Part shown: positions 13,696-61,587 of the stretch, one piece after another | Layout of the letters: every line of letters starts with the position of its first letter | Position numbering within the stretch: the first letter of the stretch is position 1 | Source: an uncultured Acidimicrobiales bacterium | Lineage (GTDB): Bacteria; Actinomycetota; Acidimicrobiia; Acidimicrobiales; Hopanoidiivorantaceae | NCBI GenBank assembly: GCA_964514465.1 | Contig: CAZERQ010000192.1 | Span: 1 to 61,748, forward strand | Direction: 5' to 3' | Length of the DNA: 61,748 nucleotides | The notes under the pieces: model-generated | The model's input: only the letters and a program-made list of their open reading frames with translations | Told to the model about the DNA's origin: nothing | Databases searched by the model: none | Translations under genes and position numbers: made by a program

Positions 13696-14845
13696 CCAGG
13701 ACGGGTCGACCCCCGAGATGGCGCCCATGGACGTGCCGGCGCGCCTGGTTCGTCTGCGACAGGCACTGGCCGACCAGCCCTGCGATGCCCTGGTGATCTC
13801 GCACCTGCCGAACATACGCTGGCTCAGCGGCTTCACCGGATCGGCCGGCACAGCCATCGTCACCGACACCGAATGCGTGCTGATCACCGACGGGCGCTAC
13901 AGCTTCCAGGCGCCACGCGAAATCGCCGACGCCAAAGCCGAAGTTGAGGTTCACATATCGGCCAGCGCCAAAGAGCAATCAGCCATGATCGCCGAAGCCC
14001 TCAAAGGCGTGGAGGCTGTCGGGCTGGAGGCCGAGCACATCAGCTGGGCGCGCCAGATTTCGTGGGCCAAGCAGCTGTCGGAGTCTCCAGTGCCAATCGA
14101 GGGACTGGTGGAGGGCCTGCGCCGCCGCAAGGATCCGGGCGAGGTGGCCAGGGTTGCCGCCGCCGCCAGATTGGTGGACGAAGCCATGCGCGAGATATTC
14201 GAACTGCTGTCGCAGCCCGGAGCCAAGCTCGACCTCAGCGAACACGACCTCGCGGCCGAACTGGACTATCGCATCAGGCGCCGGGGAGCCAGCGAGTTGG
14301 CGTTTGAGACCATCGTGGCATCGGGCGAGAACTCGGCGCTGCCGCACGCCCGTCCCAGCCGTCGCCAGATCCGCCCCGGCGAGCTGTTGCTGATTGATGT
14401 GGGCGCGGTCTATGACGGCTATCGCTCCGACATGACCCGGACATTTTCGCTGGAGCAGCCCAGCCAAAAGGAAGCCGAGATTTGGCAGGTCGTGCGGGAG
14501 GCACAGCAGCTGGGAGTCGAAGCGGTGCGCGCCGAGATGTCCGCCGGCGACATCGACCAGGTCTGTCGCCAGAAAATCTCCGAGCGCGGCTGGGGCGACG
14601 ACTTCATGCACAGCACCGGCCACGGCGTGGGCCTGGAGATCCACGAGGCCCCCAGCGTCAGCGCCAAGAGCAAGGACGTCCTGGAGCCGGGCGAGATCAT
14701 CACCGTCGAGCCGGGCATCTATCTGCAGGATCTGGCGGGGGTGCGGCTGGAAGATACGTTGCTGGTTGAGCCAGACGGCTGTCGTCCGCTCACACAGACG
14801 CCCAAGTTCTTGAGCCTGAGCGAGTTCGGCGCCGGTGCCGGATAG
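13688..14845 (+). CDS. Xaa-Pro aminopeptidase/dipeptidase (peptidase M24B)
   Basis: IDVGAVYDGYRSDMTRTF, HSTGHGVGLEIHEAP, EPGIY...GVRLED. Start moved to ATG 13688 (MTSQDG...), which overlaps the aroQ stop. The listed 13634 start lies inside aroQ. Confidence 0.85.
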   Translation: MTSQDGSTPEMAPMDVPARLVRLRQALADQPCDALVISHLPNIRWLSGFTGSAGTAIVTDTECVLITDGRYSFQAPREIADAKAEVEVHISASAKEQSAMIAEALKGVEAVGLEAEHISWARQISWAKQLSESPVPIEGLVEGLRRRKDPGEVARVAAAARLVDEAMREIFELLSQPGAKLDLSEHDLAAELDYRIRRRGASELAFETIVASGENSALPHARPSRRQIRPGELLLIDVGAVYDGYRSDMTRTFSLEQPSQKEAEIWQVVREAQQLGVEAVRAEMSAGDIDQVCRQKISERGWGDDFMHSTGHGVGLEIHEAPSVSAKSKDVLEPGEIITVEPGIYLQDLAGVRLEDTLLVEPDGCRPLTQTPKFLSLSEFGAGAG

Positions 14846-14962
14846 GTTGGGTGCCGGATAGCTTCGCTGCCGGGTAGCCTTAACCAAAGCCCGCACACGC
14901 AGCCCGCGCCTGCAGACCGCGCACTGCGCCCACAAAACCACACAGCACACACCGGAGAAAAA

Positions 14963-15526
14963 ATGCCAGCCATCACCACCAACGACCTCAAAAACGGAAT
15001 GACCCTGAACCTGGAAGGCGACCTGTTCCAGGTGGTCGAGTTCCAGCACGTCAAGCCCGGCAAGGGCAACGCCTTCGTGCGCACCACGCTCAAGAACGCC
15101 CGCACCGGCTCGGTGCTGGATCGCACATTCCGGGCCGGCGAGAAGGTGGAGCGCGCCATCATCGACAAGCGCGAGATGCAGTTTCTCTATCGGGAGGGCG
15201 CCGATTTCGTGTTCATGGACAACCAGAGCTATGAGCAGATGCAGGTCGGCCCTGCGGCGGTGGGCGATGCCGACAAATACATGAAGGAAGGCGATGTGGC
15301 GCACCTGCTGATGTATCAGGGAGAGACGGTGGAGCTGCAGCTGCCGGCGGCGGTGGAGCTGGAGATAACCCACACCGAGCCGGGAGTGCAGGGCGATCGG
15401 GTGTCGGGCGCCACCAAGCCGGCAACGCTGGAGACGGGACTGGTCACGCAGGTGCCGCTGTTCTTGGAGGTGGGCGAAAAAATCAAGGTGGACACCCGCT
15501 CAGGCGACTACATCAGCCGTGCCTGA
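14963..15526 (+). CDS. efp: Elongation factor P
   Basis: [44 protein letters not shown] Shine-Dalgarno upstream. Confidence 0.95.
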
Positions 15527-15534
15527 CCGCCGAT

Positions 15535-17157
15535 ATGTCAGGCACTAGACGACATTCCAGAGAGCTGGCTCTGGCGCTGCTGTATGAAGCCGACAGCAAG
15601 CAGGCCACGCTTTCGGATGTGCTGGCCGGGCAGCTGATGGCGCCGCCCGAGTTTGCCCGAGAGTTGCTTGGCGGAATAGAGGAGAACCTGGATGACATTG
15701 ACGCCAAGATTCAGCGGCACACACAGGGCTGGGACATCGACCGTCTGGCGCGGGTGGATCTGGCGCTGCTGCGGCTGGGGGTGTTCGAGGTGTGCTTTTG
15801 TGATGACACTCCGCACGCGGTGGCCATGGATGAGGTGGTCGAGCTGGCCAAGCAGTATTCCACGGCTGAGTCGTCGCGCTATATTAATGGGGTGCTGGCC
15901 GGCGTGTTGGCCGAGAGCCGTTCGACAACTGACGGTGGCGCGATGACCGACGGCCGTGCGATGACTGCCAGCCGCGCGATGACCGACGGCGGCCTGACGA
16001 CCGACGGCCAACTCGTCCTGCGCGACGGCACCAGTTTCTCCGGCAAACTTTTCGGCGCGGCCAGCCCGACCGGATTCGCCACGGGCGAGGTCGTGTTCAA
16101 CACCTCCATCGTGGGCTACCAGGAGATCATCACCGACCCGTCATATGCCGGCCAGATCATCGCCTTCACCTATCCCCACATCGGCAACTATGGCATCACC
16201 GCCCACGATGACGAAAGCCAGACGCCGGCCTGCCGTGGCATCATCGTGCGCAACTTGACCCTGCGCCCCAGCAACTGGCGCGCCGAAGGCAGCTTGTCCG
16301 AGCAGTTGGCCGCGGCGGGGCTGGCGGCCATAGCCGACATCGACACCCGGAGGTTGACCCGCCACATCCGCCAGTTCGGTTCGATGGTGGGGGCGTTCGG
16401 CGCGCTCACCCAAGCCGAGCTGCTGGAAGCTACCCAAGCCGAGCCGGGCACCGACGGGGTGGATTTGATTTCGCAGGTGACCTGCGCCGAGCCGTATATG
16501 GCAGACGAAGTGTTGGCAGCCGACGGGGCCGCGCCGCCCGGGCAACCTACCGAGACAGGCAAGCCCACCGAGACAGGCGCGCCGCCCGAGCCGCGGCCGT
16601 GGCGGGTGGTGGCCTATGACTTCGGCATCAAGCGCACCATACTGCGACAGCTGGCCAGCTTCGCCGAGGTCGAGGTGGTGCCCGCGTCAACTCCGTATGA
16701 CGAGGTGCTGGCGCGCCAACCCCACGGGGTGTTTTTGTCCAACGGCCCGGGCGACCCCAGATGCAGCCCAAAAGTGTCGCAGAACATCGCCAAGCTGCTT
16801 GGCAAGCTGCCGGTGTTTGGCATTTGTCTGGGGCATCAGATTCTGGCGCAGGCACTGGGAGCCGAGATCGTCAAGCTGCCGTTCGGACATCACGGCGGCA
16901 ACCATCCGGTGGCCAACTGCGCCACGGGCCAAGTGGAGATCACCGCGCAGAACCACAACTTCGCGGTGGCGCATCCGGCCGCGAGCTTTGAGGTTACCCA
17001 CTTGAACCTGAACGACAACACAGTGGAAGGTCTGTGGGCCAAAGATGCGCAGGCCCGGGGAATACAGTATCACCCGGAGGCCGGGCCGGGCCCGCACGAC
17101 AGCCGTTATCTGTTCGGCGAGTTCCGACAGATGATGGAGAGCTTCCACAAGCCCTAA
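15535..17157 (+). CDS. carA: In-frame fusion of NusB (antitermination factor) and CarA (carbamoyl-phosphate synthase small subunit)
   Basis: aa 1-~130 are NusB-like ([12 protein letters not shown]...[17 protein letters not shown]). From ~aa 160 it is CarA ([16 protein letters not shown]...[56 protein letters not shown]). There is no stop codon between the two parts. Confidence 0.85.
15940..16011 (+). repeat. 4 x 18-nt in-frame tandem repeat forming the NusB-CarA linker
   Basis: gcgatgaccgacggccgt / gcgatgactgccagccgc / gcgatgaccgacggcggc / ctgacgaccgacggccaa, encoding [24 protein letters not shown]. Confidence 0.9.
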
Positions 17158-17200
17158 GCCCGCGCCCGCGTCAAGCCGTCACCCCGTCCCACCGCGCAAA

Positions 17201-20434
<3,234 letters not shown>

Positions 20435-20452: not shown

Positions 20453-22144
20453 TTAGAACAAGCCGACTATCTCGCCGTCTTCGTCCAGGTCAATGTCAAA
20501 CGCGGCCGGAGCCGAACCCAAACCGGGCATGGTGCGCATGTCGCCGCAGATGGGATACAAAAAGCCCGCCCCGACCGAAGCCCTGACCTCGCGCACCGGC
20601 AGCGTCCAGCCCGTGGGGGCGCCGTTGAGTTTGGGGTCAGACGAAAGCGACAGATGGGTCTTGGCGATGCACACCGGCAGCTTGTCAAAACCGGCCGCGG
20701 TGTAGGTGTCCAACTGGCGCGACGCCGCCGGCGTGTATGACACATCGTCCGCGCCATAGACCTTGGTGGCGACCGCGTGGATCTTGTCTTTCAGCGAGGC
20801 ATCGTCCGGATACAACAGCTCAAAGCTGCTGTCTTCCTGGGCCGCCTCCTCCACGACCTCGGCCAGCCCGGTCGCGCCCGCGCCGCCGTCTGAGAAGTGG
20901 GTGCTGACCGCGCTGCGCACGCCTTCCTCCGCGCAGATCTCGGCGATGGCCGCATGCTCGCTGTCGTGGTCGGTGGGGAAGGCATTGATGGCCACCACGG
21001 GGCTGACGCCATGCAACGCGATGTTTTGGATCTGCTTGCGCAGGTTGGCCGACCCCTCGTGCACCTCGTCTGGATTCTCGGCCAGCATCTCCTCGGGCAG
21101 CGGCCGGCCCGCCACCACGCGGTGCTTGCCCGACTGGCTCTTGAGCGCCCGCACGGTGCACACCAGCACGGCGGCATCGGGCTGCAGACCCGAGACGCGG
21201 CACTTGATGTTGAAGAAGCGCTCGGCTCCCATGTCGGCGCCGAAGCCGGCCTCGGTGATGACATAGTCGCCGCTGTGGATGCCGATCAGGTCGCCCACCA
21301 CCGAAGAGTTGCCGGTGGCGATGTTGCCGAAGGGGCCGGTGTGGACCAGAACGGGGGTCTGCTCCAGGGTCTGCATCAGGTTGGGCTTGAGGGCGTCCTT
21401 GAGGATGACCGCGGCCGAGCCCGCCGCCTTGATGTCTTCGGCCGTAACGGGATCGCCGTCTGGGGTGTAGCCCACCACCACTTGGCCGAGGCGTTGGCGC
21501 ATGTCGGCTTGCGATGTGCTCAGCGCCAGCAGCGCCATGAGCTCGGACGCGGCGGTGATGTCAAAGCCGCTTTGCCGGGGCACCCCGTCCAGGCGAGTCC
21601 CCAGCCCCACCACGATGTTGCGCAGGGCCCGGTCGTTGATGTCGAGCACCCGGCGCCAGGTGATGTTGTGCATGTCCAGGTTGGAGGCGTTGCCGTGATA
21701 GAGGTGGGCGTCGAGCAGGGCGGCGCACATGTTGTGGGCGGCGGTGACCGCATGCATGTCGCCGGTGAGGTGCAAGTTGAGCATCTCCATGGGCACCACC
21801 TGGCTGTGGCCTCCGCCGGCCGCGCCGCCTTTGATGCCAAAGGTCGGGCCCATGGACGGCTGGCGCAAAGTGATCATGGCCGAGCGGTTGATGTGCGAGA
21901 AACCCTGCCCCAGGCCGACGGTGGTGGTGGTCTTGCCTTCGCCGAAAGGGGTGGGGGTGATGGCCGAGACCAGGATGTATTTGGCCCGCGGGCGGTCGGA
22001 CATCTTGTCGATGGCGTCAAGTGAGACCTTGGCGGCGCCTGTGCCGTATGCCTCCAGGCAGTCCTGGGGGATGTTGGCTTTGTCGGCGATCTCAGACAGC
22101 GGGGCGAGCTTGGCCGCCCGGGCGATTTCAAGATCAGATTTCAT
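20453..22144 (-). CDS. fhs: Formate--tetrahydrofolate ligase
   Basis: MKSDLEIARAAKL..., ITPTPFGEGKTTTTVGL, ATGNSSV, LPVCIAKT. Start set at ATG 22144 with GGAGGA 6 nt upstream. The listed 22561 start is an unsupported extension. Confidence 0.92.
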   Translation of the reverse strand: MKSDLEIARAAKLAPLSEIADKANIPQDCLEAYGTGAAKVSLDAIDKMSDRPRAKYILVSAITPTPFGEGKTTTTVGLGQGFSHINRSAMITLRQPSMGPTFGIKGGAAGGGHSQVVPMEMLNLHLTGDMHAVTAAHNMCAALLDAHLYHGNASNLDMHNITWRRVLDINDRALRNIVVGLGTRLDGVPRQSGFDITAASELMALLALSTSQADMRQRLGQVVVGYTPDGDPVTAEDIKAAGSAAVILKDALKPNLMQTLEQTPVLVHTGPFGNIATGNSSVVGDLIGIHSGDYVITEAGFGADMGAERFFNIKCRVSGLQPDAAVLVCTVRALKSQSGKHRVVAGRPLPEEMLAENPDEVHEGSANLRKQIQNIALHGVSPVVAINAFPTDHDSEHAAIAEICAEEGVRSAVSTHFSDGGAGATGLAEVVEEAAQEDSSFELLYPDDASLKDKIHAVATKVYGADDVSYTPAASRQLDTYTAAGFDKLPVCIAKTHLSLSSDPKLNGAPTGWTLPVREVRASVGAGFLYPICGDMRTMPGLGSAPAAFDIDLDEDGEIVGLF

Positions 22145-22316
22145 GGGTGTTCCTCCTGGATGTGTGTGGTTAACTTGTCCAGTTGGCAATTCTAGTGGCT
22201 GGCGCGGACGAGTGCTGGCGCGGACGGGTGCACCGGCGCGGGCGGTGCTGGCGCGGGACGGCTCGGCCACGTTGCGGTTCGGCCACGATGCGCCCACATT
22301 CCTATACGCTGAATTA

Positions 22317-22622
22317 ATGTCTTTATCAAAGTGGCGGGCCGATTGCGACGGCGTGTTCGACAAAGTCAGCCGGCAGCTGGAGCGGCGCGAGCAGTTGTGC
22401 TCCCGGGTGGCAAGCGGCCAGGTTGGGGTGGCCGAGTTGGTGCTGGCGGAGGATCCGGAGCCGCTGGTGTCGGAGACCAAGCTATTGAGTTTGCTGGATT
22501 GCGTGGAGGGGTTGGGCAAGGTGCCGGCGCGCAAGCTGCTGGGCGAAAAGCAGAACCTCAAGGTGGGTCAGTTCTCCCGCCAGGAGCTGCAGCAGTTGAT
22601 GGAAGGGGCCAGTCTTGTCTAG
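22317..22622 (+). CDS. mihF: Integration host factor, actinobacterial type (mIHF-like)
   Basis: ~100 aa, lies immediately upstream of gmk as in other Actinomycetota. SETKLLSLLDCVEGLGKVPARKLL...FSRQELQQL resembles the mIHF helix-hairpin-helix region. It is the in-frame tail of ORF 21729..22622, whose upstream part overlaps fhs. Confidence 0.65.
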   Translation: MSLSKWRADCDGVFDKVSRQLERREQLCSRVASGQVGVAELVLAEDPEPLVSETKLLSLLDCVEGLGKVPARKLLGEKQNLKVGQFSRQELQQLMEGASLV

Positions 22623-23226
22623 CTCGGCTGAAGATCTGGCCGGCCCGCCCGACGGCTCGGCTGTCCCGTCCGGCCCGTCTGAAATCGTGGTGCTGTTCGG
22701 CCCCAGCGGTGTCGGCAAAAGCACCATCGCCAACGAGCTGGCCGAGCAGTGCCCGGATCTGTGGCTGAGCCGCTCATGGACAACCCGCCAGCGCCGCTCG
22801 CAGGAGTCGCCGCAGAGCTACAAGTTCGTTACCGAAGCCGAGTTCCTGGCCCACCGCGATGCCGGTGGATTTTTGGAGTGGGACGAATTCCTGGGCAACT
22901 ATTACGGCACGCCCATGCCCCACGCCCCGGACGGCCAGGATGTGCTGTTGGAGATAACCCTGCACGGGGCCGAACAGATTGTGAAGCAACACCCGGAGGC
23001 GCTGCTGATTTTCGTTGACACGCCGTCCAAGCGGGAGCAAAAGTTCCGGCTCAGACAGCGCGGCGGTTCGGCGTCCAACAGGCGCCGGCGTGTGCGGCGA
23101 AGCAGACAGGAGCGCCAGCAGAGCCAAAAGCTCACCGAAACCCGTGTCATCAACGACGACTTGGTGGAGACGGTGGCACGCATATGTGAGATCATCCAGA
23201 CCTTCCGACTGAACCGATCGCAGTGA
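22615..23226 (+). CDS. gmk: Guanylate kinase
   Basis: VVLFGPSGVGKSTI, SRSWTTR, GNYYGTP. The TTG start at 22615 is uncertain; GTG 22687 is possible. Confidence 0.88.
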   Translation: MSSSAEDLAGPPDGSAVPSGPSEIVVLFGPSGVGKSTIANELAEQCPDLWLSRSWTTRQRRSQESPQSYKFVTEAEFLAHRDAGGFLEWDEFLGNYYGTPMPHAPDGQDVLLEITLHGAEQIVKQHPEALLIFVDTPSKREQKFRLRQRGGSASNRRRRVRRSRQERQQSQKLTETRVINDDLVETVARICEIIQTFRLNRSQ

Positions 23227-23266
23227 TGGCCGGCGGCTGGCGGCTGGCACGCCGGGGCGGGCCGTG

Positions 23267-23295
23267 TGCCAAAATCTCTGATTTGCCTGTATAAT
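23267..23295 (+). promoter_or_regulatory. Candidate promoter for rpoZ
   Basis: Perfect TATAAT at 23290-23295, 56 nt upstream of the rpoZ ATG. The -35 is weak (TGCCAA, 17 nt upstream). Confidence 0.3.
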
Positions 23296-23351
23296 GACAT
23301 CTGCCCCTTTCCCGTCCAATCCAAACGACCCCACTCCCAAAAGGAACAACC

Positions 23352-23690: not shown

Positions 23691-23753
23691 AATGCGGGCC
23701 CGGCTGGCTGCGTTAGCGTGTCGCCAGTCCAGCCGCACCACTTGAGCCACCCC

Positions 23754-24962: not shown

Positions 24963-25001
24963 GGCTCAAAAGACTAGACACAAACCACAAAGGACACTGC
25001 T

Positions 25002-26222: not shown

Positions 26223-26253
26223 CGCGCAGGCCGACTCTGGGGCGCAAGCCAAC

Positions 26254-28089: not shown

Positions 28090-28122
28090 CCGCCATCTCG
28101 TCCGACACTATAGCCTGTATAT

Positions 28123-28647: not shown

Positions 28648-28656
28648 CTCGGGATC

Positions 28657-29601: not shown

Positions 29602-29626
29602 TTTGCAGCCGAAAGGCAGAACTGAT

Positions 29627-31281: not shown

Positions 31282-31292
31282 CTTTAAAGACA

Positions 31293-51320: not shown

Positions 51321-51331
51321 CCAAAGCGACC

Positions 51332-52384
51332 ATGAACCAAGACCAAGCAGACCAGCCTCAAACGGCCCAGCCTCGGAACTTGGGCGAGCACCAGCCCCCG
51401 ATCGAGCGGTTGGCGGCGCAGCTGTCCGAACTGCTCCCCGGCTGCGATCTGGATCTGGACTGGCCGCTGGGCCAGCACACCAGCTATAGGGTCGGCGGAT
51501 CGGCCAGGCTGGCGCTGAAGGTCGACACTCCGCTGCAGCTGGCCCGACTTGCCAGGTTCTGGTCTGGCGAAGACGTAGGTCTGCCTCTGCTGGTGCTGGG
51601 AAGCGGAACGAACATGCTGGTGGCTGACGCTGGATTCAGGGGAGTGCTGGTGCGCTTGGGCGAGCAGTTCTCGGGCATCGAGCTGCCGCATGTGTCCTCG
51701 CACGGCAACTGGAGCAGCACCGACGACACAGCCATGCGGGTCGGAGCGTCTGTGCCGTTGCCCATCGCGGCGCGCCAGTCGGCTGCCGGCGGGCTGGGTG
51801 GATTCGAGTGGGCGGTCGGTGTGCCTGGGTCGGCCGGGGGAGCGGTCAGGATGAACGCGGGCGGGCATGGCTCAGATGTCGCGCAAAGTCTGATCTCGGC
51901 CACCTGCGTTGACCTGTCCAGCGGACTGATGCTGACATTGACTCCGCAGCAGCTGCAGCTCGGCTATCGCACCAGCGCGCTTGCGTCCAGCCAGATTGTG
52001 TGCAGCGCCAGCTTCAGGCTGCATCACGCCAACCCGCTGCACTCCCGCCAGCTGATCGCGGACATCCTGAGCTGGCGGCGCGAGCACCAGCCGGGCGGAC
52101 AGAACTGCGGTTCAGTGTTCGCCAACACCGGCGACCAGGCAGCCGGTGCGCTGGTGGATCGGGCGGGGCTGAAGGGCAAGAGGTTGGGCAGCGCTCGTGT
52201 CTCGGCCAAGCACGCCAACTTCATCATCGCCGACAGGGGAGGCCGGGCACAGGACATCTTTGATCTGATGCGGGAGGTGCATGCGACTGTGCATGCCCAG
52301 ACGGGCATCGGGCTGAAGAGCGAAACTGTGCTGGTCGGCTTTGACGGCCCCGACGCTGATTTGCTCAGGGGGATAAAGAGCTGA
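51332..52384 (+). CDS. murB: UDP-N-acetylenolpyruvoylglucosamine reductase
   Basis: HTSYRVGGSARL, VLGSGTNMLVAD, GVPGSAGGAVRMNAGGHG, GSVFANT. Confidence 0.9.
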   Translation: MNQDQADQPQTAQPRNLGEHQPPIERLAAQLSELLPGCDLDLDWPLGQHTSYRVGGSARLALKVDTPLQLARLARFWSGEDVGLPLLVLGSGTNMLVADAGFRGVLVRLGEQFSGIELPHVSSHGNWSSTDDTAMRVGASVPLPIAARQSAAGGLGGFEWAVGVPGSAGGAVRMNAGGHGSDVAQSLISATCVDLSSGLMLTLTPQQLQLGYRTSALASSQIVCSASFRLHHANPLHSRQLIADILSWRREHQPGGQNCGSVFANTGDQAAGALVDRAGLKGKRLGSARVSAKHANFIIADRGGRAQDIFDLMREVHATVHAQTGIGLKSETVLVGFDGPDADLLRGIKS

Positions 52385-53160
52385 TGTCCGCCCAGATGCA
52401 CCCCAAGATGCAGTCGCGCCGCCGCAAGGTCTCCGGCGCAAAGAACAAGCGACGGCTCCGCTGGAAGCTGTATCCGCCGCTGATCCTGTTGGCGCTGGCG
52501 GGTCTGGCAGTTTGGCTGCTGCTATACAGTCCGTTCTTGGATCTGAACGATGTGCGCATTTCCGGCCTGGGCCAGACCGACCCCGCCAGCATATCTGAGA
52601 TCACCGACCAGCTGCTGGGAGACCCCCTGCTGACCGCCAACATAGACGATGCCCGCAAGCTCATCGCCGACCTGCCGTGGGTGCAAGACGTGGAAATCTC
52701 GCGCTCCTGGAGAAACGGCAGGCTAGACATATCGGTGATCGAACGCACACCCGTTGCCGTGGTGCTGCGCGACGCGGGCTATGATCTGGTGGACATCGAG
52801 GGCAAGATACTGGACAGGCTTGACGACGCCCGGGGCTATCTGGTGGTTGAGGGAATCGGCGAAGCTGGCGCCGACGCAAGCGAGTATCTGAACTCAGAGG
52901 TGGCGCTGGAAGTGGCGCGTGAAGTGGCGCAGGTGCCGCGGCTGAGCCAGCAGGTGGGAGCGGTGGTGCAAGACGAAACCGGCAAGATCTTCTTGCGCCT
53001 GGACAGCGGGGGATGGGTCTATCTGAACGATGCCCGCGAGCTCACATCCAAGCTACGCTCGGCCGAAACAGTGCTGTCGCAAGCCAGTCTGGCTTGTTCT
53101 CAAATGCTAAATGTCGACTCTCCGTTGGCCCCGGTGATCACCGAAGACCACGTCTGCTGA
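52384..53160 (+). CDS. ftsQ: Cell division protein FtsQ
   Basis: Basic tail plus TM segment LILLALAGLAVWLLL. POTRA-like LDLNDVRISGLGQTD...LPWVQDVEISRSW. Sits between murB and ftsZ. Confidence 0.8.
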   Translation: MSAQMHPKMQSRRRKVSGAKNKRRLRWKLYPPLILLALAGLAVWLLLYSPFLDLNDVRISGLGQTDPASISEITDQLLGDPLLTANIDDARKLIADLPWVQDVEISRSWRNGRLDISVIERTPVAVVLRDAGYDLVDIEGKILDRLDDARGYLVVEGIGEAGADASEYLNSEVALEVAREVAQVPRLSQQVGAVVQDETGKIFLRLDSGGWVYLNDARELTSKLRSAETVLSQASLACSQMLNVDSPLAPVITEDHVC

Positions 53161-53233
53161 GGGCTGGCCAGGGCCCACCACGCCAGCGCCAACCTTAACC
53201 CTAAAGTGCAGCTTTAGTGTTGGCAGATTTCAC

Positions 53234-53261
53234 TTGCATCTGTAAACATTTAAGCTAAACT
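53234..53261 (+). promoter_or_regulatory. Candidate ftsZ promoter in the AT-rich ftsQ-ftsZ spacer
   Basis: TTGCAT (53234-53239), 16-nt spacer, TAAACT (53256-53261). The 9-mer TTGCATCTG recurs at 53311-53319. Confidence 0.3.
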
Positions 53262-53345
53262 ACAGGTTTAGGACGCCCAGCGTCATATCCAGAAATTCCA
53301 ACGCAACATTTTGCATCTGAGCAATTCTCACCAAGGAGCATTCCC

Positions 53346-54470
53346 ATGTCTGAACAAAACAACTATCTGGCCGTCATCAAGGTAATTGGTGTTGGCGGGG
53401 GTGGCGGCAACGCGGTAAACCGGATGATCGTAACCGGCTTGCGCGGTGTCGAATTCATCGCCGTCAACACCGACGCCCAGGCCCTGCTCACCAGCGACGC
53501 CGACATGAAGATTTCAATCGGCGGCGACCGCACCAGAGGGCTGGGGGCAGGCGGCGATCCTCAGGTGGGAGCTGAAGCAGCCGAATCCAGCCGCCGCGAG
53601 ATAGAGGAGGCGCTGGCCGGAGCAGACATGATATTCATCACCGCAGGCGAAGGCGGCGGCACAGGCACGGGCGCGGCGCCAATCGTGGCCGAGATAGCCA
53701 AAGGCTCAGGCGCCCTGACCGTGGCCGTGGTAACGAGGCCGTTTGATTTCGAGGGTCGCTCCAGGGCAGTCAAGGCGGATGAGGGCATCCAGAACCTGCG
53801 TGAGAAGGTTGACACCCTGATCGTCATACCCAACGACCGACTGTTGGATGCTGCCGATGAGAACATGCCCATTCTGGAAGCCTTTGCCATGGCCGACAAT
53901 GTCTTGTTGCAGGGCGTCAAGGGCATCTCCGACATCATCACCCGGCCGGGCCAGATCAACGCCGACTTCGCTGACGTAAAGACCATCATGACCGACGCCG
54001 GCTCGGCCATGATGGGCATCGGCACAGCCACCGGCGAGGACCGGGCCATAGCCGCCGCCCGCAAAGCCCTGCGCAGCCCGCTCCTGGAGGATGCAGTGGA
54101 GCAGGCCCGCGGCATTCTTTTGTCCATCAGCGGCGACGCCGACATGACCATCAACGACCTGGAGAAGGCGGCCAATGTCGTCAAGGAGGTCGCCCACAAC
54201 GATGCCAACATCATCATGGGGATGTATCTGGACACCGAGCTTGAGAACGAGATCAGGGTAACGGTGCTGGCGGCCGGCTTTGACCGCAGCGCGCCGCAGA
54301 CTTCTGGCTCAGATGCGGTGGTGCTTGAGATGCCCACCGAGATGGCTGCCGACGACACCTTTGACGGCGCAGGCGAGATGGGCGATGTCGCAGATGATCT
54401 GGTGGACGAGCTGGGGGATCTGCCGGGCCAGAGCGACGACGAATGGGCCGTGCCTGATTTCTTGCAGTAA
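53346..54470 (+). CDS. ftsZ: Cell division GTPase FtsZ
   Basis: [38 protein letters not shown] Shine-Dalgarno. Confidence 0.97.
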
Positions 54471-54496: not shown

Positions 54497-55240
54497 TTGA
54501 CGCCGGAGCAAAGTCGCATCCGCCGCGAGTTCCCGCTTGAGTGCCGCGGGCGCATAGTTGTCGCTCAGACCGAGCGGTCAGACGGAGACTTCAGTCCGAA
54601 CTCCAGCAGCGACCTGGCCCAGCACCGACAACAGATTGCGCCGGTTCCCTGGGTGTGGTGCGAGCAGGTGCATGGCGCGCAGGTGGCGGTTGTCCGACAG
54701 ACAGGCCACTTTGAACCATCATCAGCCTCCCAAGCGGACGCTCTGATCACCGCCCAGGCCAACCTCGCGCTGGGCATCACAACCGCAGACTGCGCGCCCA
54801 TAGCTGTGTGGACGACCGAAGGTGCCGTGGCCGCCATTCACGCCGGCTGGCGCGGTCTGGCCGCCGGCATTGTCGGTCAGGCAGTTGCCGAGCTTGTCTC
54901 GCTGCAGCCCACTTCTGCCAGTCCCACTTCCGCCCGACTTAGCGCTTTCGTGGGCCCGCACATCTGCGCCGGGTGCTATGAGTTCTCACCGGCTGATGCC
55001 GCGGGGCTGTGCGCCCAGTGGGGCGAGGACATTTTGCGCGCGGATGGGGCCGGTCGCGGTGGGGAGACTGGACACAACCTGGACCTGCGGCTTGTGATCT
55101 CGCGAGCTCTGACCCAGGCCGGAGTCGCCCAGGTTGAGTATCTGGATTCCTGCAGCAGCTGCGAGGCCGAACGCTGGTTCTCACACAGGGCGCGCTCGGA
55201 AACCCAAAGGAACGCCATGGTAGTCTGGTGGGAGACATGA
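54497..55240 (+). CDS. pgeF: Purine nucleoside phosphorylase / laccase-domain protein (YfiH/PgeF, DUF152)
   Basis: ITTADCAPIAVW, AIHAGWRGLAAGIV, GPHICAGCYE. TTG start is uncertain. Confidence 0.85.
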   Translation: MTPEQSRIRREFPLECRGRIVVAQTERSDGDFSPNSSSDLAQHRQQIAPVPWVWCEQVHGAQVAVVRQTGHFEPSSASQADALITAQANLALGITTADCAPIAVWTTEGAVAAIHAGWRGLAAGIVGQAVAELVSLQPTSASPTSARLSAFVGPHICAGCYEFSPADAAGLCAQWGEDILRADGAGRGGETGHNLDLRLVISRALTQAGVAQVEYLDSCSSCEAERWFSHRARSETQRNAMVVWWET

Positions 55241-56019
55241 GTCAGCTGGAGAATGAGCCGGGTGCAATGACGAACAGGCAGGAGCAACAGCACGCCATGC
55301 AAGGCGACGAGCATGCACGCCAGCTCACCCAACTCGTGGCCGAGCGACTGTCGCACGTCAAGAAGCGACTGCTGGCAGCCACCCCCGGCCGCAATCTGCC
55401 CCAGATCGTGGCGGTGACCAAAGGCTGTTTTGAACAACACATCCAGGCAGCTCTGGCCAACGGCTTGTGTGACTTCGGGGAGAACTACGCCGACGAGCTG
55501 AAGGCCAAATCAGAGAAAATGAAATCGGGGTTGGCCGCGGAATCGACATCACCGGCCGCTGGGTCGACAGCAGACGACATCCGCTGGCATTTCCAGGGCC
55601 GGCTGCAGTCCAACAAGATAGCCCGGCTCGATGGCATCGTCTCGGTGTGGCAAAGCCTTGACAACCTGTCAACAGCCGAAAAGCTGGCCAAGCGCATTGC
55701 CGGAGCAGATGTGTTCGTGGAGGTACGCACCAGCCAAGACGACAGCCGCCCCGGAGTGGAGCCATCGCAGATCCCAGAATTTGTTGAACGCTGCCGACTG
55801 CTGCAGCTGAATGTGCGCGGGCTGATGTGCATCGCCAGCCTGGAGCCGGCCGAGGCAGCCAGGGAGTTCGAGTTGTGCCGTCGGCTGGGCGAGGCTTCGG
55901 GGCTGTCCGAGCTGAGCATGGGCATGTCGCAGGACTACGAGCTGGCCGCCCAAAACGGAGCCACCATGGTTCGTCTGGGCAGGATTCTGTTCGACCCCGA
56001 TTTCCCAATTCGGCACTGA
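55237..56019 (+). CDS. yggS: PLP-binding homeostasis protein YggS family
   Basis: VAVTKG, FGENYADEL, WHFQGRLQSNKI, LSMGMSQDYELA. ATGA overlap with the pgeF stop. GTG 55228 is an alternative start. Confidence 0.88.
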   Translation: MSQLENEPGAMTNRQEQQHAMQGDEHARQLTQLVAERLSHVKKRLLAATPGRNLPQIVAVTKGCFEQHIQAALANGLCDFGENYADELKAKSEKMKSGLAAESTSPAAGSTADDIRWHFQGRLQSNKIARLDGIVSVWQSLDNLSTAEKLAKRIAGADVFVEVRTSQDDSRPGVEPSQIPEFVERCRLLQLNVRGLMCIASLEPAEAAREFELCRRLGEASGLSELSMGMSQDYELAAQNGATMVRLGRILFDPDFPIRH

Positions 56020-56061
56020 AAAATCAAATCCGGCATTAAATCCAAGCAGCGCCGCCAAAAC

Positions 56062-56571
56062 ATGACTATAATGGCAGTGATGTCAAAATTCAAACGGGTC
56101 ATGTATTATCTGGGACTGAGCGCCGACGAGGAGTATGCCGACTACGACGACTTCGGCCAGGCCAGCCCCGAAACTTTCACCTATGGGCAGGAGCCGTCAA
56201 ACGTGAACATGGACCCGGTTCCCGTTGCCTCCACCATGCCGACACAGAACGACGACTTCAGCGTCTATACGCCGCTGTCGCCCTCGTCGCCAACCGTGCG
56301 CCCCATGCCGCAGAGCCAGACCTCCAAGGTGCAGGTGCTGACTCCGAGGTCGTTTCAGGAGGTCAAGGAGATCGGCGAGAACCTGAGGCGTGAGCAGCCG
56401 ATCATCGTCAACCTGCAAGAGACGCAGCAGGATGTCTCGCGCCGCATTGTTGATTTTGCCAGCGGCGTCTGCTTCGCTCTGGGAGGACAGATGGAGCGGG
56501 TGGCGGATTTGGTGTATCTGTTGGCGCCAGCCGATGTTGAGATCAACCCGGAAGACCACACGCAGTTCTAG
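56062..56571 (+). CDS. sepF: Cell division protein SepF
   Basis: VMYYLGL..., RSFQEVKEIGENLRREQPIIVNLQ, RIVDFASGVCFALGGQMERV. Alternative ATG starts at 56071 and 56080. Confidence 0.9.
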   Translation: MTIMAVMSKFKRVMYYLGLSADEEYADYDDFGQASPETFTYGQEPSNVNMDPVPVASTMPTQNDDFSVYTPLSPSSPTVRPMPQSQTSKVQVLTPRSFQEVKEIGENLRREQPIIVNLQETQQDVSRRIVDFASGVCFALGGQMERVADLVYLLAPADVEINPEDHTQF

Positions 56572-56604
56572 TCGGCCTGTCGGTGGACGGGTTGGGGAGT
56601 TCGG

Positions 56605-56856
56605 ATGTTTTTGCTGTGCTGGCTGATTTATCTGCTGTTGATTGTCATTTTTTTGCGGGCCATCCTGAGCTGGTTCCCGATCAGCCCACACTCAATGGCC
56701 GGCACAGCGGTGTATTACCTGAATCGTGTGACCGAACCGCTGATGGCTCCGGTCAGACGTTTTGTCCGCCCGGCCAGCGTGAGCGGCACGGCCATAGATT
56801 TCAGCGCGATGATCGTGATGTTCGTGCTGTTTATTTTGGTTAGGTTTGTCTGCTAG
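56605..56856 (+). CDS. yggT: YggT-family membrane protein
   Basis: LLLIVIFLRAILSWFPISP....YYLNRVTEPLMAPVRR. Lies after sepF. Confidence 0.85.
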   Translation: MFLLCWLIYLLLIVIFLRAILSWFPISPHSMAGTAVYYLNRVTEPLMAPVRRFVRPASVSGTAIDFSAMIVMFVLFILVRFVC

Positions 56857-59800
56857 GACTTGCGGATTGAAAAGCTGAACGCTTGGCCGTCAAGTTCGCC
56901 CTCAGTGATACCCTCGGGCATATCGGCCGCCGCCCCAAAATTAATCGCCACAGCCAGCACCTGGTCGGCCAGATAATCCTGGTGGCTGCGGATGGCTTGC
57001 TCCAACTCCCCGGGCAGCGCCAGGCTCAACTCAATCCGGTCGGAGATATGCAGCCCCGCATCACGCCTGGCCTGTTGCACCAAACGGACCAGACGCCGGG
57101 CCTGTCCCTCCTGGCGCAGCTCGTCCGTAACCTCCATATCCAAGCTGACCACAGAAAGCCCGTCGCCCAAAACTGCGTGGGTGAATGGTGATGGTGCGCT
57201 ATCGCCATCTCCCGGACGCTCGCCGCCCACCAGCGTGACGGTGAACTCGTCGGGCTCAAGGACAACCCCCGCGACTTCCGCCTGGCCGCTGTCGGCAATC
57301 TTCCAGTCGCCCGACTTGGCCGCGGCCATGACCGCCTGCATCTGATCCTTCAGCCGGGGCCCGAGCTTCTTGCCGTCCGGTTTGAGCGACGGAGTGAAGC
57401 TCGCCGGGGCTTCGTCTGCCAGATCAATTGTCTTGACGTTGACCTCATCGGCCAACAGCTCGACATAGGGGCGCAGCGTCTCAGCGCGTGGGCCGGCGAT
57501 GCCCAGATGAGACAGCGGTATGCGCACCGGGACTTTGCCCTGCTCGCGCAGATGCAGCACGGACGAACAGACCTCCCGGGCGTGATCCATGGCCGCCACC
57601 AGATCCGGATCGTCGGGCAGCGCATCGGGTTCGGGCCAGTCGGTGAGGTGGACGCTGACCGGAGCATCGCCGTCGGCATCGCCATCGGCGCCCGCGCCAG
57701 CCACCAGCCCTCGATATATCTCCTCGCTCACCAAAGGCAGAAGCGGCGCCGTCAGTCGGGCAAAAACAGTCAGCACCACAAACAATGTGTCATATGCCTG
57801 CTGCTTGGCTTCGATCGCCTCAGGCGTGCGATCCTCCTTGGGCGCCCAGAAACGGTCACGGCTGCGGCGGATATACCAGTTGTTCAAGGCATCGATGAAC
57901 TCGGTGATGTGCGCGCAGCTCTGGGGCAGGTCATAGTCGTCCAGCGCCGCGGTGACCTCAGCCACAAGCTGGCGGGTCTTGGCCAGAATATATCGGTCGA
58001 GCACATGGCTTGAGCTGGTGCTGTCTCCGGCCCGGATGCTGTCGGCGTTGGCATAGAGGCAAAAGAAGCTGTAGGCATTCCAGATGGGATAAAGCACCAG
58101 TCGGGTAACCGAGTTCATGTCCCCCTCGCTGATTCGCAGATCCCCGCCGCGCACCACCGGCGAAGACATCAGATACCAGCGCAGCGCATCCGAACCCTGC
58201 TGGCTGAACACCTCCTCGGGGTCGGGATAGTTGCGCAGCCGCTTGGACAGCTTGTTGCCGTCGGCCGCCAGCACCACCCCATGCCCGATGGCGTTCTTGA
58301 ACGGAGGCGAGTCAAACAGCGCCACGCCCAGGACATGCAGGGTGTAGAACCAGCCCCGCGTCTGGTTGATGTATTCCACGATGAAGTCGGCCGGGAAGTG
58401 GCTGTCGAACCACTCCTTGTTCTCAAAGGGATAATGCACCTGCGCAAACGGCATCGACCCGGACTCGAACCAGCAGTCCAGCACCTCCGGCACGCGCCGC
58501 ATCACCGACCGGCCGCTGGGGTTGTCCGGGTTGGGCCGGGTCAGCTGGTCGATGTCGGGGCGGTGCAGGCTCTGTGGGCGCACGCCGAAGTCGGCCTCCA
58601 GCTCGGCCAGGCTGCCATAGACGTCCATCCGGGGATACTCGGGGTCGTCGCTGCGCCAGACCGGCAGGGGCGCGCCCCAGAACCGGTTGCGGCTGACGGC
58701 CCAGTCCCGCGCGCCCAAAAGCCAGTTGCCGAACCTGCCGTCTCCGACGTGCTGCGGGATCCAGTTGATCTGGCTGTTCAGCTCCACCAGGCGATCCTTG
58801 ATGGAGGTCACGCTGACATACCACGAATTCATGGCGCGATAGATGATGGGCGTGTCGGTGCGCCAGCAATAGGGATAGTTGTGCTCGATGGTGCGGTGGC
58901 TCCACAGCAGCTTGCGGCGGCGCAGCTCGGCGATGATGTCGCTGTTGGCGTCGAATACGTTGCGGCCCGACCATTGCGACACCTGACCGGTGAAGTTGCC
59001 CTCGTCATCCACCGGAACCACGACCTCGATGTCCGCGGCTTGGCAGGCCGACTGGTCGTCCTCGCCGAAGCCGGGCGCCATATGCACGATGCCAGTGCCC
59101 TCGGCGGTGTCTACGAAGTCTGCGGCCAGCACTTGGTGCGCGTTGGCGGTGCCGGCGAAATAGTCAAACAGCGGCTGATAGCTGCGCCCGACCAGGCTGG
59201 CTCCCTTGACGGTGCCCACGCGCCGGGCTGTCTGGTCGGTGAGGTCCGCGCTCTTGAGCACCTGTTCGGCCAGCGCGCCGGCGAAAATGAACTGTTGGGT
59301 GGCGCCGTTTTTGCCCGCGCCTGAGCTGTCCGCGCCGCGCCCAGCCACCAACTCCGGGCACTCCCAGATGTCATAGTCCACCTCGGGATGAACCGCCAGC
59401 GCCAGATTGCTGGGCAAAGTCCAAGGGGTGGTCGTCCATGCCAGCAAGTTGACCGGGCCGTCGTCGCCGGCCTGAGGAGCCAGACAAAAAGCCACGGTGA
59501 CGGCCGGATCCTGTCGGCTCCTGGTGGCGTCATCCAGTCGTATCTCAAAATTCGACAGCGGGGTCTGCGCGCCCCAGGAATAGGGCATCACCCGATAGGC
59601 CTCATAGATCAGTCCCTTGTCCCACAGCTCTTTGAACGCCCAGATGACGCTTTCCATATAGTTCAGATCCATGGTCTTGTAGTCGTTGTGGAAATCCACC
59701 CAGCGGGCCTGGCGCCCCACATAGCGCTCCCATTCCGCGGTGTAGCGCATGACCGACTCGCGGCAGAAATCGTTGAAGCGGGCCACCCCGAAATCCTGGA

Positions 59801-60185
59801 CGCTCTTGCGGCCCTGCAGCCCGAGCTCCTTTTCGACCTCCATCTCGGCGGGCAGGCCGTGGCAGTCCCAGCCGAACCTGCGCTCGACCTTGCGGCCGCG
59901 CATGGTCTGGTAGCGGGGGATGACGTCTTTGACATAGCCCGTGAGCAGATGCCCGTAGTGTGGCAGGCCGTTGGCGAATGGCGGGCCGTCATAGAATACG
60001 TATTCGTTGCTGCCGCCGGGGCGCTGGGCCACGGAACGCTCAAAGACCTGGTGCTGCTGCCAGAAATCCAGGACGGCTCGCTCTATGCGGGCGAAGTCGG
60101 GTTTCGGCCCCACGCTGGGGTAGCGCGGTTCGGCGTTGGGATGGCGCGGTTCGGCGTTGGGATGGCGGTTGTTTTTATTTTTCAT
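56853..60185 (-). CDS. ileS: Isoleucine--tRNA ligase (type 2, eukaryote-like form common in Actinomycetota)
   Basis: 1110 aa. PPFANGLPHYGHLLTGYVKD (HIGH region), KLSKRL (KMSKS region), WCISRNRFWG-like WAVSRNRFWGAPLPVW. Confidence 0.95.
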   Translation of the reverse strand: MKNKNNRHPNAEPRHPNAEPRYPSVGPKPDFARIERAVLDFWQQHQVFERSVAQRPGGSNEYVFYDGPPFANGLPHYGHLLTGYVKDVIPRYQTMRGRKVERRFGWDCHGLPAEMEVEKELGLQGRKSVQDFGVARFNDFCRESVMRYTAEWERYVGRQARWVDFHNDYKTMDLNYMESVIWAFKELWDKGLIYEAYRVMPYSWGAQTPLSNFEIRLDDATRSRQDPAVTVAFCLAPQAGDDGPVNLLAWTTTPWTLPSNLALAVHPEVDYDIWECPELVAGRGADSSGAGKNGATQQFIFAGALAEQVLKSADLTDQTARRVGTVKGASLVGRSYQPLFDYFAGTANAHQVLAADFVDTAEGTGIVHMAPGFGEDDQSACQAADIEVVVPVDDEGNFTGQVSQWSGRNVFDANSDIIAELRRRKLLWSHRTIEHNYPYCWRTDTPIIYRAMNSWYVSVTSIKDRLVELNSQINWIPQHVGDGRFGNWLLGARDWAVSRNRFWGAPLPVWRSDDPEYPRMDVYGSLAELEADFGVRPQSLHRPDIDQLTRPNPDNPSGRSVMRRVPEVLDCWFESGSMPFAQVHYPFENKEWFDSHFPADFIVEYINQTRGWFYTLHVLGVALFDSPPFKNAIGHGVVLAADGNKLSKRLRNYPDPEEVFSQQGSDALRWYLMSSPVVRGGDLRISEGDMNSVTRLVLYPIWNAYSFFCLYANADSIRAGDSTSSSHVLDRYILAKTRQLVAEVTAALDDYDLPQSCAHITEFIDALNNWYIRRSRDRFWAPKEDRTPEAIEAKQQAYDTLFVVLTVFARLTAPLLPLVSEEIYRGLVAGAGADGDADGDAPVSVHLTDWPEPDALPDDPDLVAAMDHAREVCSSVLHLREQGKVPVRIPLSHLGIAGPRAETLRPYVELLADEVNVKTIDLADEAPASFTPSLKPDGKKLGPRLKDQMQAVMAAAKSGDWKIADSGQAEVAGVVLEPDEFTVTLVGGERPGDGDSAPSPFTHAVLGDGLSVVSLDMEVTDELRQEGQARRLVRLVQQARRDAGLHISDRIELSLALPGELEQAIRSHQDYLADQVLAVAINFGAAADMPEGITEGELDGQAFSFSIRKS
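60123..60164 (-). repeat. Perfect 2 x 21-nt in-frame tandem duplication in the ileS N-terminal tail
   Basis: Plus strand gcgcggttcggcgttgggatg x2, encoding HPNAEPR HPNAEPR on the minus strand. Confidence 0.95.
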
Positions 60186-60249
60186 AAATGCAATTTTTCA
60201 GGTTAGATAGGTAGCCTAAGAAAAGGCAACAATTTCTTTAACTTTACCT

Positions 60250-61032
60250 ATGGCAACCAAAGCAACAACCAAAACCACCGCCAAGGCCAGCAAATCTGTT
60301 AAGGCCGTGAAGACGGTCAAGCCCGCGAAGTCGGCAAAGACGGCCAAGCCCGCGAAAGCGGTTAAGCCCAAGGCGAGCAAGCCGAAGCCAGCCAAGGCGG
60401 CCAAGCCGTCGAAGCCAGCGAAGCCCGCGAAGGCTGCCAAGACGGTGAAGGCGGCCAAGCCTGCCAAAGCCGCGAAGCCAGCGAAGACACCTAAAGTCGT
60501 AAAGGCCACGAAGCTGGCCAAGCCCGCGAAACCAGCAAAGGCCACGAAGCCGGCCAAACCTGCGAAACCAGCAAAGCCGAAAGCCGCCAAGCCAAAAGCC
60601 AAGGCCACCAAACCCAAACCCAAACCCAAAGCCAAACCCCGCGCCAAAGCCAGCCCGTTCTTCGACAAGCAATTTCTGGAGCAGCAGATTAGGCTGCTGA
60701 CGCTGGAGCGAGAGAAATACCTCAAGTCATCGGCATCGCTGGAAAGCGAGGCACAGCAGTTGCTGGAAACCCGCGAGCAAGGCGATGTCCAATTTGACGA
60801 GGAGTCCGCCCAGGGCGACAGCTGGGCCATAGCCAGAGACCAGGATCTGGTGCTGAGCGCCGAAGCCCGTGCCACAGTCTCAAAAATAGACGAAGCTCTG
60901 GCGCGCATCAATGACGGAACCTACGGCATCTGCGTGCGCACCGGCGAGCCCATCCCTAAGGCGCGCCTCAAGGCCATCCCCTGGGCCACCGAAACGGTGG
61001 AACAAAAAGCACACGGATTGCTGCTGCGCTAA
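60250..61032 (+). CDS. DksA/TraR-family regulator with N-terminal Lys/Ala/Pro-rich histone-H1-like tail and no Cys4 zinc finger
   Basis: The first ~130 aa are KAxKPAK repeats. They are followed by a coiled coil (LEQQIRLLTLEREKYL...) and SKIDEALARINDGTYGICVRTGEPIPKARLKAIPWATETVE, in which only one Cys is left in the finger region. Confidence 0.8.
   Translation: MATKATTKTTAKASKSVKAVKTVKPAKSAKTAKPAKAVKPKASKPKPAKAAKPSKPAKPAKAAKTVKAAKPAKAAKPAKTPKVVKATKLAKPAKPAKATKPAKPAKPAKPKAAKPKAKATKPKPKPKAKPRAKASPFFDKQFLEQQIRLLTLEREKYLKSSASLESEAQQLLETREQGDVQFDEESAQGDSWAIARDQDLVLSAEARATVSKIDEALARINDGTYGICVRTGEPIPKARLKAIPWATETVEQKAHGLLLR
60262..60648 (+). repeat. Low-complexity coding repeat (AKPAK/KAAKP units)
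   Basis: Recurrent gccaagcccgcgaa, gccaagccgtcgaagccagcgaagcccgcgaag, aaacccaaacccaaacccaaagcc. Confidence 0.85.
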
Positions 61033-61587
61033 GTGCACAAAACACGCCTCACCCTGCTGCTGTCAATAGCCGCGCTCTGGCTGGCCGCCGACCAGCTGAC
61101 CAAGCACTTTGCGCTGAGCGCATTGGAAGACAACCCCCGCCACATCGTGGGGTTCCTGTGGCTGCGGCTGGCGCGCAACAGCGGCTCCGCATTCGGCATC
61201 GCCAGCAACTATGGGGTCTGGATCGGACTGGTCGGGGTGGCAATCTTGGCGTCATTTTTTTTGGTGGTGCGACAGCTACAGGGCCGCGCCAGCGTTGTTT
61301 TCGTGGCACTGATCATGGGAGGAGCCGTGGGCAACTTGGGCGACCGCATCTTTCGGGCGGACGACGGCTTCATGTCCGGCAAGGTGGTGGACTTCATTGA
61401 CCTGACTTGGTGGCCCATATTCAACTTGGCCGACACGGGGATTGTGGTGGGCTTGTTCGGCACGGCGATATTGTTTTTCCTGAGCCACCGCCGCGAGGAA
61501 ATGGCCGGGGCCGCGGCTGACGAGACGACGGGGACCGGAACGGCAGGGACCGGAACGACGACAGACGAGACAGCAGACGATGAATGA
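61033..61587 (+). CDS. lspA: Lipoprotein signal peptidase (signal peptidase II)
   Basis: LARNSGSAFG, GGAVGNLGDR, VVDFIDL, FNLADTGIVVG. GTG start directly after the preceding stop. Confidence 0.9.
   Translation: MHKTRLTLLLSIAALWLAADQLTKHFALSALEDNPRHIVGFLWLRLARNSGSAFGIASNYGVWIGLVGVAILASFFLVVRQLQGRASVVFVALIMGGAVGNLGDRIFRADDGFMSGKVVDFIDLTWWPIFNLADTGIVVGLFGTAILFFLSHRREEMAGAAADETTGTGTAGTGTTTDETADDE

Follow-up and report, generated by a model that had tools for sequence, protein, structure and literature searches.

Ehrlichia ruminantium is said, in a 2005 description by Collins et al., to have tandem repeats that actively vary in copy number, and housekeeping proteins of Plasmodium falciparum carry low-complexity insertions, for which we know of no bacterial counterpart at such scale. 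In Mycobacterium tuberculosis, tandem-repeat units of tens of bases differ in copy number between close strains and show an in-frame bias in coding DNA (PMC12817950). Here we analyse positions 1–61,748 of contig CAZERQ010000192.1 (assembly GCA_964514465.1, from an uncultured Acidimicrobiales bacterium; this whole stretch of 61,748 nt is called the window), in which short tandem arrays lie in many housekeeping genes. Dense arrays characterise one genus-level group of uncultured Acidimicrobiia (the clade) rather than the phylum or class as a whole, and per substitution this clade adds short (12–24-nt) in-frame tandem duplications to loops and tails of its housekeeping proteins about ten times as often as its relatives.

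The arrays have the features of slippage-type variable-number tandem repeats or minisatellites: an excess of head-to-tail copies, copy-number differences and multiple-of-3 periods in coding DNA only. M. tuberculosis is alike in being a member of the Actinomycetota without MutS/MutL, but its repeats concentrate in promoters, intergenic mycobacterial interspersed repetitive unit (MIRU) loci and the PE/PPE families, whereas the clade arrays occur in many core enzymes with no relation to one another (Mur ligases, FtsW/FtsI, CarA, Fmt, RibD, PriA and IleS), mostly have 2–3 copies and are different in each sister lineage. E. ruminantium reportedly resembles the clade in a lineage-wide, ongoing gain and loss of repeats well above that of related genomes; its repeats are said to be mostly intergenic and to have periods that are longer and vary more, and its genome to be the reduced one of an intracellular bacterium, whereas the clade combines a GC-rich genome and a dense, ordinary gene set with mostly in-frame coding arrays. 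In P. falciparum, too, lineage-specific repetitive insertions in surface loops, ascribed to slippage, have made conserved enzymes longer, but the organism is eukaryotic, its genome is AT-rich, and its insertions are rich in Asn/Lys and often long. Phase-variable contingency loci likewise have slippage-prone tandem DNA and heritable copy-number change; however, theirs are long tracts of 1–8-nt units that switch surface or restriction genes by frameshift, in contrast to the 2–4 in-frame copies of 12–24-nt units found here in cytoplasmic housekeeping genes. The clade is set apart from these known cases by its many unrelated core-enzyme targets, by short, young and insertion-biased arrays, and by at least tenfold more insertions and deletions (indels) per substitution than in relatives, at a normal ratio of nonsynonymous to synonymous substitution rates (dN/dS).

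Array density in the window and its relatives

Arrays were called with Tandem Repeats Finder (TRF; for the window count, period 9–60 and score of at least 50). The 48.8 kb of coding sequence in the window contains 22 arrays, all 22 with a period divisible by 3. Shuffling codons within genes gave an expectation of 0.7 arrays (maximum 3), and shuffling inside 20-codon blocks, which keeps local composition, gave 1.3 (maximum 5; 200 shuffles each). These block shuffles, together with the GC-matched controls described below, led us to reject GC-driven low complexity. The repeat units are unrelated and have no motif in common, so a common unit or mobile element was also rejected. The original prediction, made from the sequence alone, had listed 17 sites of tandem arrays in housekeeping genes, and TRF places an array at 15 of them; at the other two, murE and lspA, repeats are visible by eye but fall under the TRF threshold. 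At lspA, the GTGTA/GTGTT repeat of the C-tail (61531–61560) stands, whereas the array at 61593–61636 belongs to the N-tail of the next gene. The perfection of the arrays had been overstated: the ileS array, described as perfect, is 93% matched, identity between copies is limited to copies 1 and 2 of the murD array and of the DUF58 array, and several arrays given as three copies have ~2.4–2.9. The arrays in the N-tails of mraZ, ileS, mog and the biotin protein ligase (BPL)-like gene hinge on uncertain start codons.

The window was compared with 72 Acidimicrobiia loci around murD and with two sister lineages from Logan assemblies (L084/L095 and L086/L096), whose cores have ~87% amino acid (aa) identity to it. 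The clade sample comprises ~93 kb and the GC-matched controls 25 loci or 464 kb (GC 0.59–0.68). Array density per 10 kb was 4.7–5.1 in the window and 3.8–10.1 in the sister lineages, against a median of 1.3 across the 72 loci and a mean of 0.96 (maximum 2.4) in the GC-matched loci. Arrays with multiple-of-3 periods reached 5.06 per 10 kb in the clade versus 0.80 in the GC-matched controls (6.3-fold), and those of other periods, mostly intergenic, 0.75 versus 0.17 (4.4-fold). Density rises with GC content across Acidimicrobiia (r = 0.55), but the clade loci are still 2.0–7.2 residual standard deviations above the regression line. The next relatives are not dense (L097, with 71% NusB–CarA identity and GC 53%; L004, 54%). 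The lineage-specific density that had been predicted is thus borne out, at 4–10 times that of GC-matched Acidimicrobiia and common only to the two sister lineages. A recent origin also holds, given that most arrays are absent from the sister lineages at a synonymous divergence (dS) of ~0.55 and that priA is polymorphic within the species. The arrays of the sister lineages are mostly elsewhere, or at the same permissive site with another unit or copy number, and copy number at the same locus differs between close relatives in priA, the FtsI N-tail (2.8 versus 5.7) and the NusB–CarA linker.

Same-species short-read contigs from three sequencing runs in Logan cover ~23 kb of the window (12289–17278, 21915–25430, 26719–34991, 51282–53839 and 54774–58263) at 99.3–100% identity. 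They reproduce every array in the covered parts (15 arrays), 14 of which are monomorphic; they depart from the window in length only at priA, where all three assemblies lack one 18-nt unit of the array. At the variant junction lies a hybrid unit. The two units have only ~12 identical bases in common, which by our reasoning is too short for k-mer collapse. This copy-number difference in priA points to ongoing change within the species.

The arrays of the window are listed below (TRF calls up to position 60652, except the murE pair).

14833–14931: two arrays, 16 nt × 2.9 and 13 nt × 3.4, at the pepQ stop and in the pepQ–efp spacer; neither period a multiple of 3; identical in Logan contigs L001–L003
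15938–16009, + strand: 18 nt × 4.0, GAMTDG-like units, NusB–CarA linker; copy number varies among the three lineages
16541–16578, + strand: 18 nt × 2.2, CarA inter-domain loop; another, 24-nt array there in L095, none in L096
20424–20457: 11 nt × 3.1, spacer between convergent carB and fhs; perfect 19 nt × 2.5 at the same place in sister locus L096
22198–22292: adjacent 16-nt arrays, × 3.9 and × 2.1, intergenic, upstream of fhs; 100% identical in L098
27116–27186, + strand: 18 nt × 3.9, APSPTA-like units, inside priA; one unit fewer in 3/3 same-species Logan assemblies
29392–29443, + strand: 21 nt × 2.5, GAGADEL, fmt residues 246–263
29643–29709, + strand: 18 nt × 3.7, degenerate, mog/moaB N-terminal tail
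31123–31181, + strand: 24 nt × 2.4, ARGMLAGE, near the ribD C-terminus
33427–33473, − strand: 24 nt × 2.0, transglutaminase-like gene
35303–35344, − strand: 15 nt × 2.8, AQPEV/AQPAV, DUF58 gene; copies 1–2 identical
36389–36420, − strand: 12 nt × 2.7, C-terminal tail of the MoxR AAA ATPase
38202–38245, + strand: 18 nt × 2.4, directly N-terminal of the LplA/BPL catalytic domain
39029–39076, + strand: 24 nt × 2.0, start of the mraZ open reading frame (ORF) or mraZ leader (start codon uncertain)
40901–40933, + strand: 12 nt × 2.8, FtsL cytoplasmic tail
41328–41369, + strand: 15 nt × 2.8, ARAKP, FtsI cytoplasmic N-tail; 5.7 copies in sister locus L086
43128–43178, + strand: 12/24-nt array, VATT, FtsI C-tail; absent from L086
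43307–43342, + strand: 2 × 18 nt, ADGSGA ADGSGA, near the MurE N-terminus; read from the sequence, under the TRF threshold
45921–46015, + strand: 18 nt × 2.1 (45921–45957) and 18 nt × 2.9 (45963–46015, DAKTAA × 3), MurD N-domain loop
47458–47508, + strand: 21 nt × 2.4, KSARPAT, FtsW N-tail; a different array there in each of the three lineages
49417–49458, + strand: 21 nt × 2.0, ARPAEAQ/TRPAEA, inside MurG; absent from L084
50963–50998, + strand: 15 nt × 2.4, GSQTG/GSQAG, inside MurC; absent from L084
60116–60167, − strand: 21 nt × 2.5, RHPNAEP, 5′ end of the ileS ORF; 93% matched
60372–60652, + strand: nested 9-, 36- and 54-nt repeats, Lys/Ala/Pro-rich, N-tail of a DksA-like zinc-finger protein
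61531–61636, + strand: 15 nt × 2, GTGTA/GTGTT (61531–61560), lspA C-tail; 12 nt × 3.7, PEPA/PEQP/PESV (61593–61636), N-tail of the next gene

Reading frame, indel rates and the strength of selection

Among clade arrays with a score of at least 40, the period was a multiple of 3 in 44/49 coding arrays versus 4/11 intergenic arrays (Fisher p = 0.0005), the latter being the chance proportion, in agreement with the selection on frame that had been predicted. The five out-of-frame coding arrays are weak matches of ~2 copies. Intergenic periods include 11, 13, 16, 17 and 19 nt, and array density is four times higher in intergenic DNA (27.7 versus 6.9 per 10 kb in coding DNA). In MurD, the arrays at 45921–46015 form a 25–33-aa insertion that is absent from all relatives, DAKTAA × 3 being found in the window only. 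An AlphaFold 2 model of MurD, confident as a whole (mean predicted local distance difference test score (pLDDT) 80), has low confidence at residues 36–49 (pLDDT < 50; block means 42–66 over 41–60), 186–193, 228–233 and 468–470. The three clade-specific MurD insertions match three of these four segments (the short stretch 468–470 being the fourth), and in the model they lie between regular secondary-structure elements.

We compared indel and substitution rates on the conserved cores of the same 9–10 cell-wall and division genes, counting internal indels of at least 3 aa. The pairs window–L084, window–L086 and L084–L086 have 16, 15 and 7 internal indels, respectively (77–135 residues), at dN 0.072–0.077 and dS 0.54–0.57, whereas 17 control pairs of Acidimicrobiia (dN 0.03–0.11, dS 0.33–0.67) have 0–2 (0–22 residues). 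The clade dN/dS is 0.13–0.14; for the 15 control pairs that have diverged to a similar extent it is 0.07–0.20. MraY, FtsZ and the FtsW core are 95–98% identical between lineages. When polarised against 68 outgroups, the clade shows 3.7–4.2 insertions and 0–0.8 deletions per 1000 aa, corresponding to 8–14 insertions versus 0–2 deletions per lineage, and other lineages average 0.34 insertions and 0.27 deletions per 1000 aa. For 40–60% of the internal indels, the longer allele has a TRF array that overlaps the indel (13/21 of those of at least 8 aa). A raised mutation input, not weak selection, is probably behind the pattern.

Weak selection would produce such arrays from an ordinary mutation input if, in a small effective population (for example, in host-restricted life), slightly deleterious in-frame insertions drifted to fixation. 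Several of the scanned relatives are host or sponge metagenome-assembled genomes (MAGs), as judged by record titles, in-frame arrays are enriched slightly above those of other periods, and the insertions build up in tolerant loops only, all in line with relaxed selection. However, the clade dN/dS lies within or below the control range, deletions are not raised, arrays of other periods, mostly intergenic, are also up 4.4-fold, and MraY, FtsZ and the FtsW core have stayed nearly unchanged. With dN/dS normal, we rejected relaxed selection, which we regard as improbable.

Still less probable is that the arrays are selected for, longer disordered linkers and tails being adaptive through, for example, changes in charge, solubility or interactions. 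The same permissive sites (FtsW N-tail, FtsI N-tail, NusB–CarA linker and CarA loop) are hit in all three lineages and the murE copies differ at synonymous sites only, as adaptation would have it; against this, arrays are four times denser in intergenic DNA, where they are blind to frame, the peptides are heterogeneous and without a common motif, the arrays quickly decay and are replaced by unrelated units, and the affected proteins are unrelated cytoplasmic enzymes. A compositional or technical artefact, that is, cryptic repeats from GC-rich low-complexity coding or errors of MAG assembly and polishing, would fit the climb of density with GC and the assembly errors to which tandem repeats are known to give rise (PMC6868369), but is very improbable and was rejected, as the 20-codon block shuffles give 1.3 versus 22 arrays, density in GC-matched controls is only about a sixth of that in the clade, three independent short-read assemblies agree over 15 arrays with a single one-unit difference, and the separately assembled sister lineages behave alike.

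A raised rate of short tandem duplication as the proposed cause

We propose, with a probability of roughly 0.7, that the rate of short tandem duplication is raised in the clade and that its products are then filtered by reading-frame and structural selection. Duplications would arise regardless of frame (intergenic spacers are densest, with periods off a multiple of 3), and selection in genes would purge frame-breaking events and events in structured parts, so that the survivors would be in-frame arrays in loops, linkers and tails, with units of 12–24 nt and usually 2–3 copies. Arrays would decay by point mutation while new ones form at the same permissive sites, and on balance housekeeping proteins would lengthen, with a bias to insertions and a rapid turnover. 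The events may be replication slippage or direct-repeat-mediated duplication (ABA to ABABA), and the raised rate may come from altered replication or lagging-strand processing, with flap removal, single-strand exonucleases and polymerase properties as candidates.

The period spectrum (12–24 nt, mode 18) is the same as in control Acidimicrobiia and therefore looks like an ordinary process running faster; we rejected a distinctive period spectrum, as the clade differs only in rate and in an excess of ~2.5-copy arrays. Such arrays (ABABA, with A about half a unit) account for 13/35 in the clade versus 9/84 in controls (Fisher p = 0.0015), examples being 29392–29443, 31123–31181, 47458–47508 and 60116–60167 in the window and 5267–5314 in L096. 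Across 35 high-identity arrays the extra partial copy has a median of 9 nt, and A frequently makes up some half of a unit; the ABA ancestor state was not observed. One-step duplication of unique sequence does not account for the ~2.5-copy excess, and 10-nt direct repeats that already stood at ~10-nt spacing are expected to be too infrequent to have seeded all of these arrays.

MutS-type repair acts only on loops of a few bases, and so would not be expected to act on duplications of 12–24 nt. The absence of MutS/MutL and reliance on NucS, offered in the original prediction as the cause, is a phylum-wide trait and therefore cannot explain a genus-level effect: most of the 72 related Acidimicrobiia loci are not dense (median 1.3 versus 3.8–10.1 per 10 kb in the clade). 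In mycobacteria, NucS leaves indels unrepaired (PMC7015689).

Tentatively, the clade could be a 'duplication mutator' lineage that occurs in nature. Its replication or the maturation of its lagging strands would have undergone a heritable change that yields insertion-biased 12–24-nt duplications, often fixed as ~2.5-copy ABABA arrays, such that protein length evolves faster than sequence; we consider this more specific form rather unlikely. Candidate changes would be altered 5′-nuclease or flap processing by Pol I, lost single-strand exonucleases or a property of the replicase. A duplication signature of flap deficiency is seen in Escherichia coli polA 5′-nuclease mutants. Yeast lacking the Rad27/FEN1 flap nuclease accumulates insertion-biased ABA to ABABA indels with units of ~5–100 bp flanked by short direct repeats (PMC5677150). 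The clade is alike in that insertions greatly exceed deletions, and its frequent partial extra copy (median 9 nt) is reminiscent of the direct-repeat pattern; however, this copy often amounts to some half of a unit and so exceeds the usual microhomology. The likeness is no more than an analogy and a lead. The gene for the 5′-flap nuclease (Pol I 5′-nuclease or a FEN homologue) lies outside the window.

Several points weigh against a raised, clade-wide duplication rate. Four loci of 72–76% GC (L056, L048, L059 and L073) reach similar raw densities, so the trait is not unique, and with only ~93 kb of the clade sampled its genome-wide behaviour is extrapolated. The priA polymorphism is supported by assemblies, not by reads. 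In-frame arrays are enriched slightly more than those of other periods (6.3- versus 4.4-fold), and some added tolerance of, or selection for, insertions is possible. The sole clade replication or repair gene seen is a divergent priA, the divergence of which is apparently common to at least the L097 PriA.

If the behaviour is genome-wide, the clade is a natural experiment in which a mutation spectrum reshapes proteins, with indels up and substitutions not, and would give a comparative handle on the replication or repair gene that controls short tandem duplication in bacteria without MutS/MutL. Conserved enzymes gain 10–50 residues in loops and tails within dS ~0.5 while their cores stay 90–98% identical, and the arrays map insertion-tolerant sites of essential cell-wall and division proteins. 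In practical terms, length-based orthology filters, gene callers and short-read assemblers would perform poorly on such genomes.

Gene content and minor observations

The window is a complete MAG contig, and a scan with one genome per species places it in Acidimicrobiia, the nearest species representative being Candidatus Hopanoidivorans cymbastelae (MurD identity 54%). A literature search on 'Hopanoidivorans', the closest named relative, gave no result, exact-protein look-up of the window FtsZ and MraY found no database record, and there were no protein clusters at ≥90% identity to the window MurD. NCBIfam and Pfam verified the gene names of the first reading. The 5′ part carries the NusB–CarA fusion, carB, fhs, priA, def, fmt, mog/moaB and ribD, followed in mid-window by a transglutaminase–DUF58–MoxR trio and the LplA/BPL-like gene. 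The division and cell wall (dcw)-type order is mraZ-rsmH-ftsL-ftsI-murE-mraY-murD-ftsW-murG-murC-murB-ftsQ-ftsZ, and further genes are sepF, ileS, the DksA-like gene and lspA. Rfam and tRNA scans of the window gave no match.

Positions 1–8700 have a GC content of 49–50%, compared with 63–64% elsewhere (62–66% from about 8.7 kb onward). This part holds two very large ORFs, 77–2080 (667 aa) and 2043–8699 (2218 aa), both without a Pfam family save for a marginal Excalibur calcium-binding match (E = 8e-5, no stretch passing alone), and a 345-nt repeat (× 1.9) at 7118–7771. Horizontal acquisition of a surface or adhesin-like locus is the probable origin of this part. The ORF at 8473–10602 (709 aa) is of low complexity and has no family matches.

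NusB and CarA form a single 540-aa protein (15535–17157). About 28 database clusters, with identity down to 48%, combine NusB, CPSase_sm and GATase domains in a single 517–641-aa protein, and CarA is stand-alone in more distant Acidimicrobiia. The fusion is old, being common down to 48% identity, and we rejected the idea that it is a by-product of the linker repeat. At the murE–mraY junction (44761–44764) there is no intervening murF; the two genes abut or overlap in 81/82 Acidimicrobiia loci, and the murF-less junction is therefore a class-wide feature of the dcw cluster. The PriA homologue (26032–28089) scores 140 bits against NCBIfam cut-offs of at least 230, and Pfam finds its 3′-DNA-binding domain only, with no helicase-domain match at E < 0.001. 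PriA of the related locus L097 has the same single Pfam domain; the divergence is therefore probably not clade-specific.

The two 18-nt copies in murE encode the same peptide and differ at 4/6 third-codon positions, and the duplication is absent from the sister lineage L086. This suggests that it is older and has been kept by selection on the peptide, or that it arose by chance. In MurC, near-alike 15-nt units (GGSQA/GSQAG) occur at 50963–50998 in the window and at 7521–7564 in L084, ~100 residues apart, and the site used by one lineage is empty in the other; the two could have arisen independently from similar local seeds, or one could be a non-tandem templated copy. The DksA/TraR-type zinc-finger protein (60250–61032) has a Lys/Ala/Pro-rich N-terminal tail of ~130 residues built from the nested 9-, 36- and 54-nt repeats, and is similar to the basic tails found in actinobacterial nucleoid-associated proteins.

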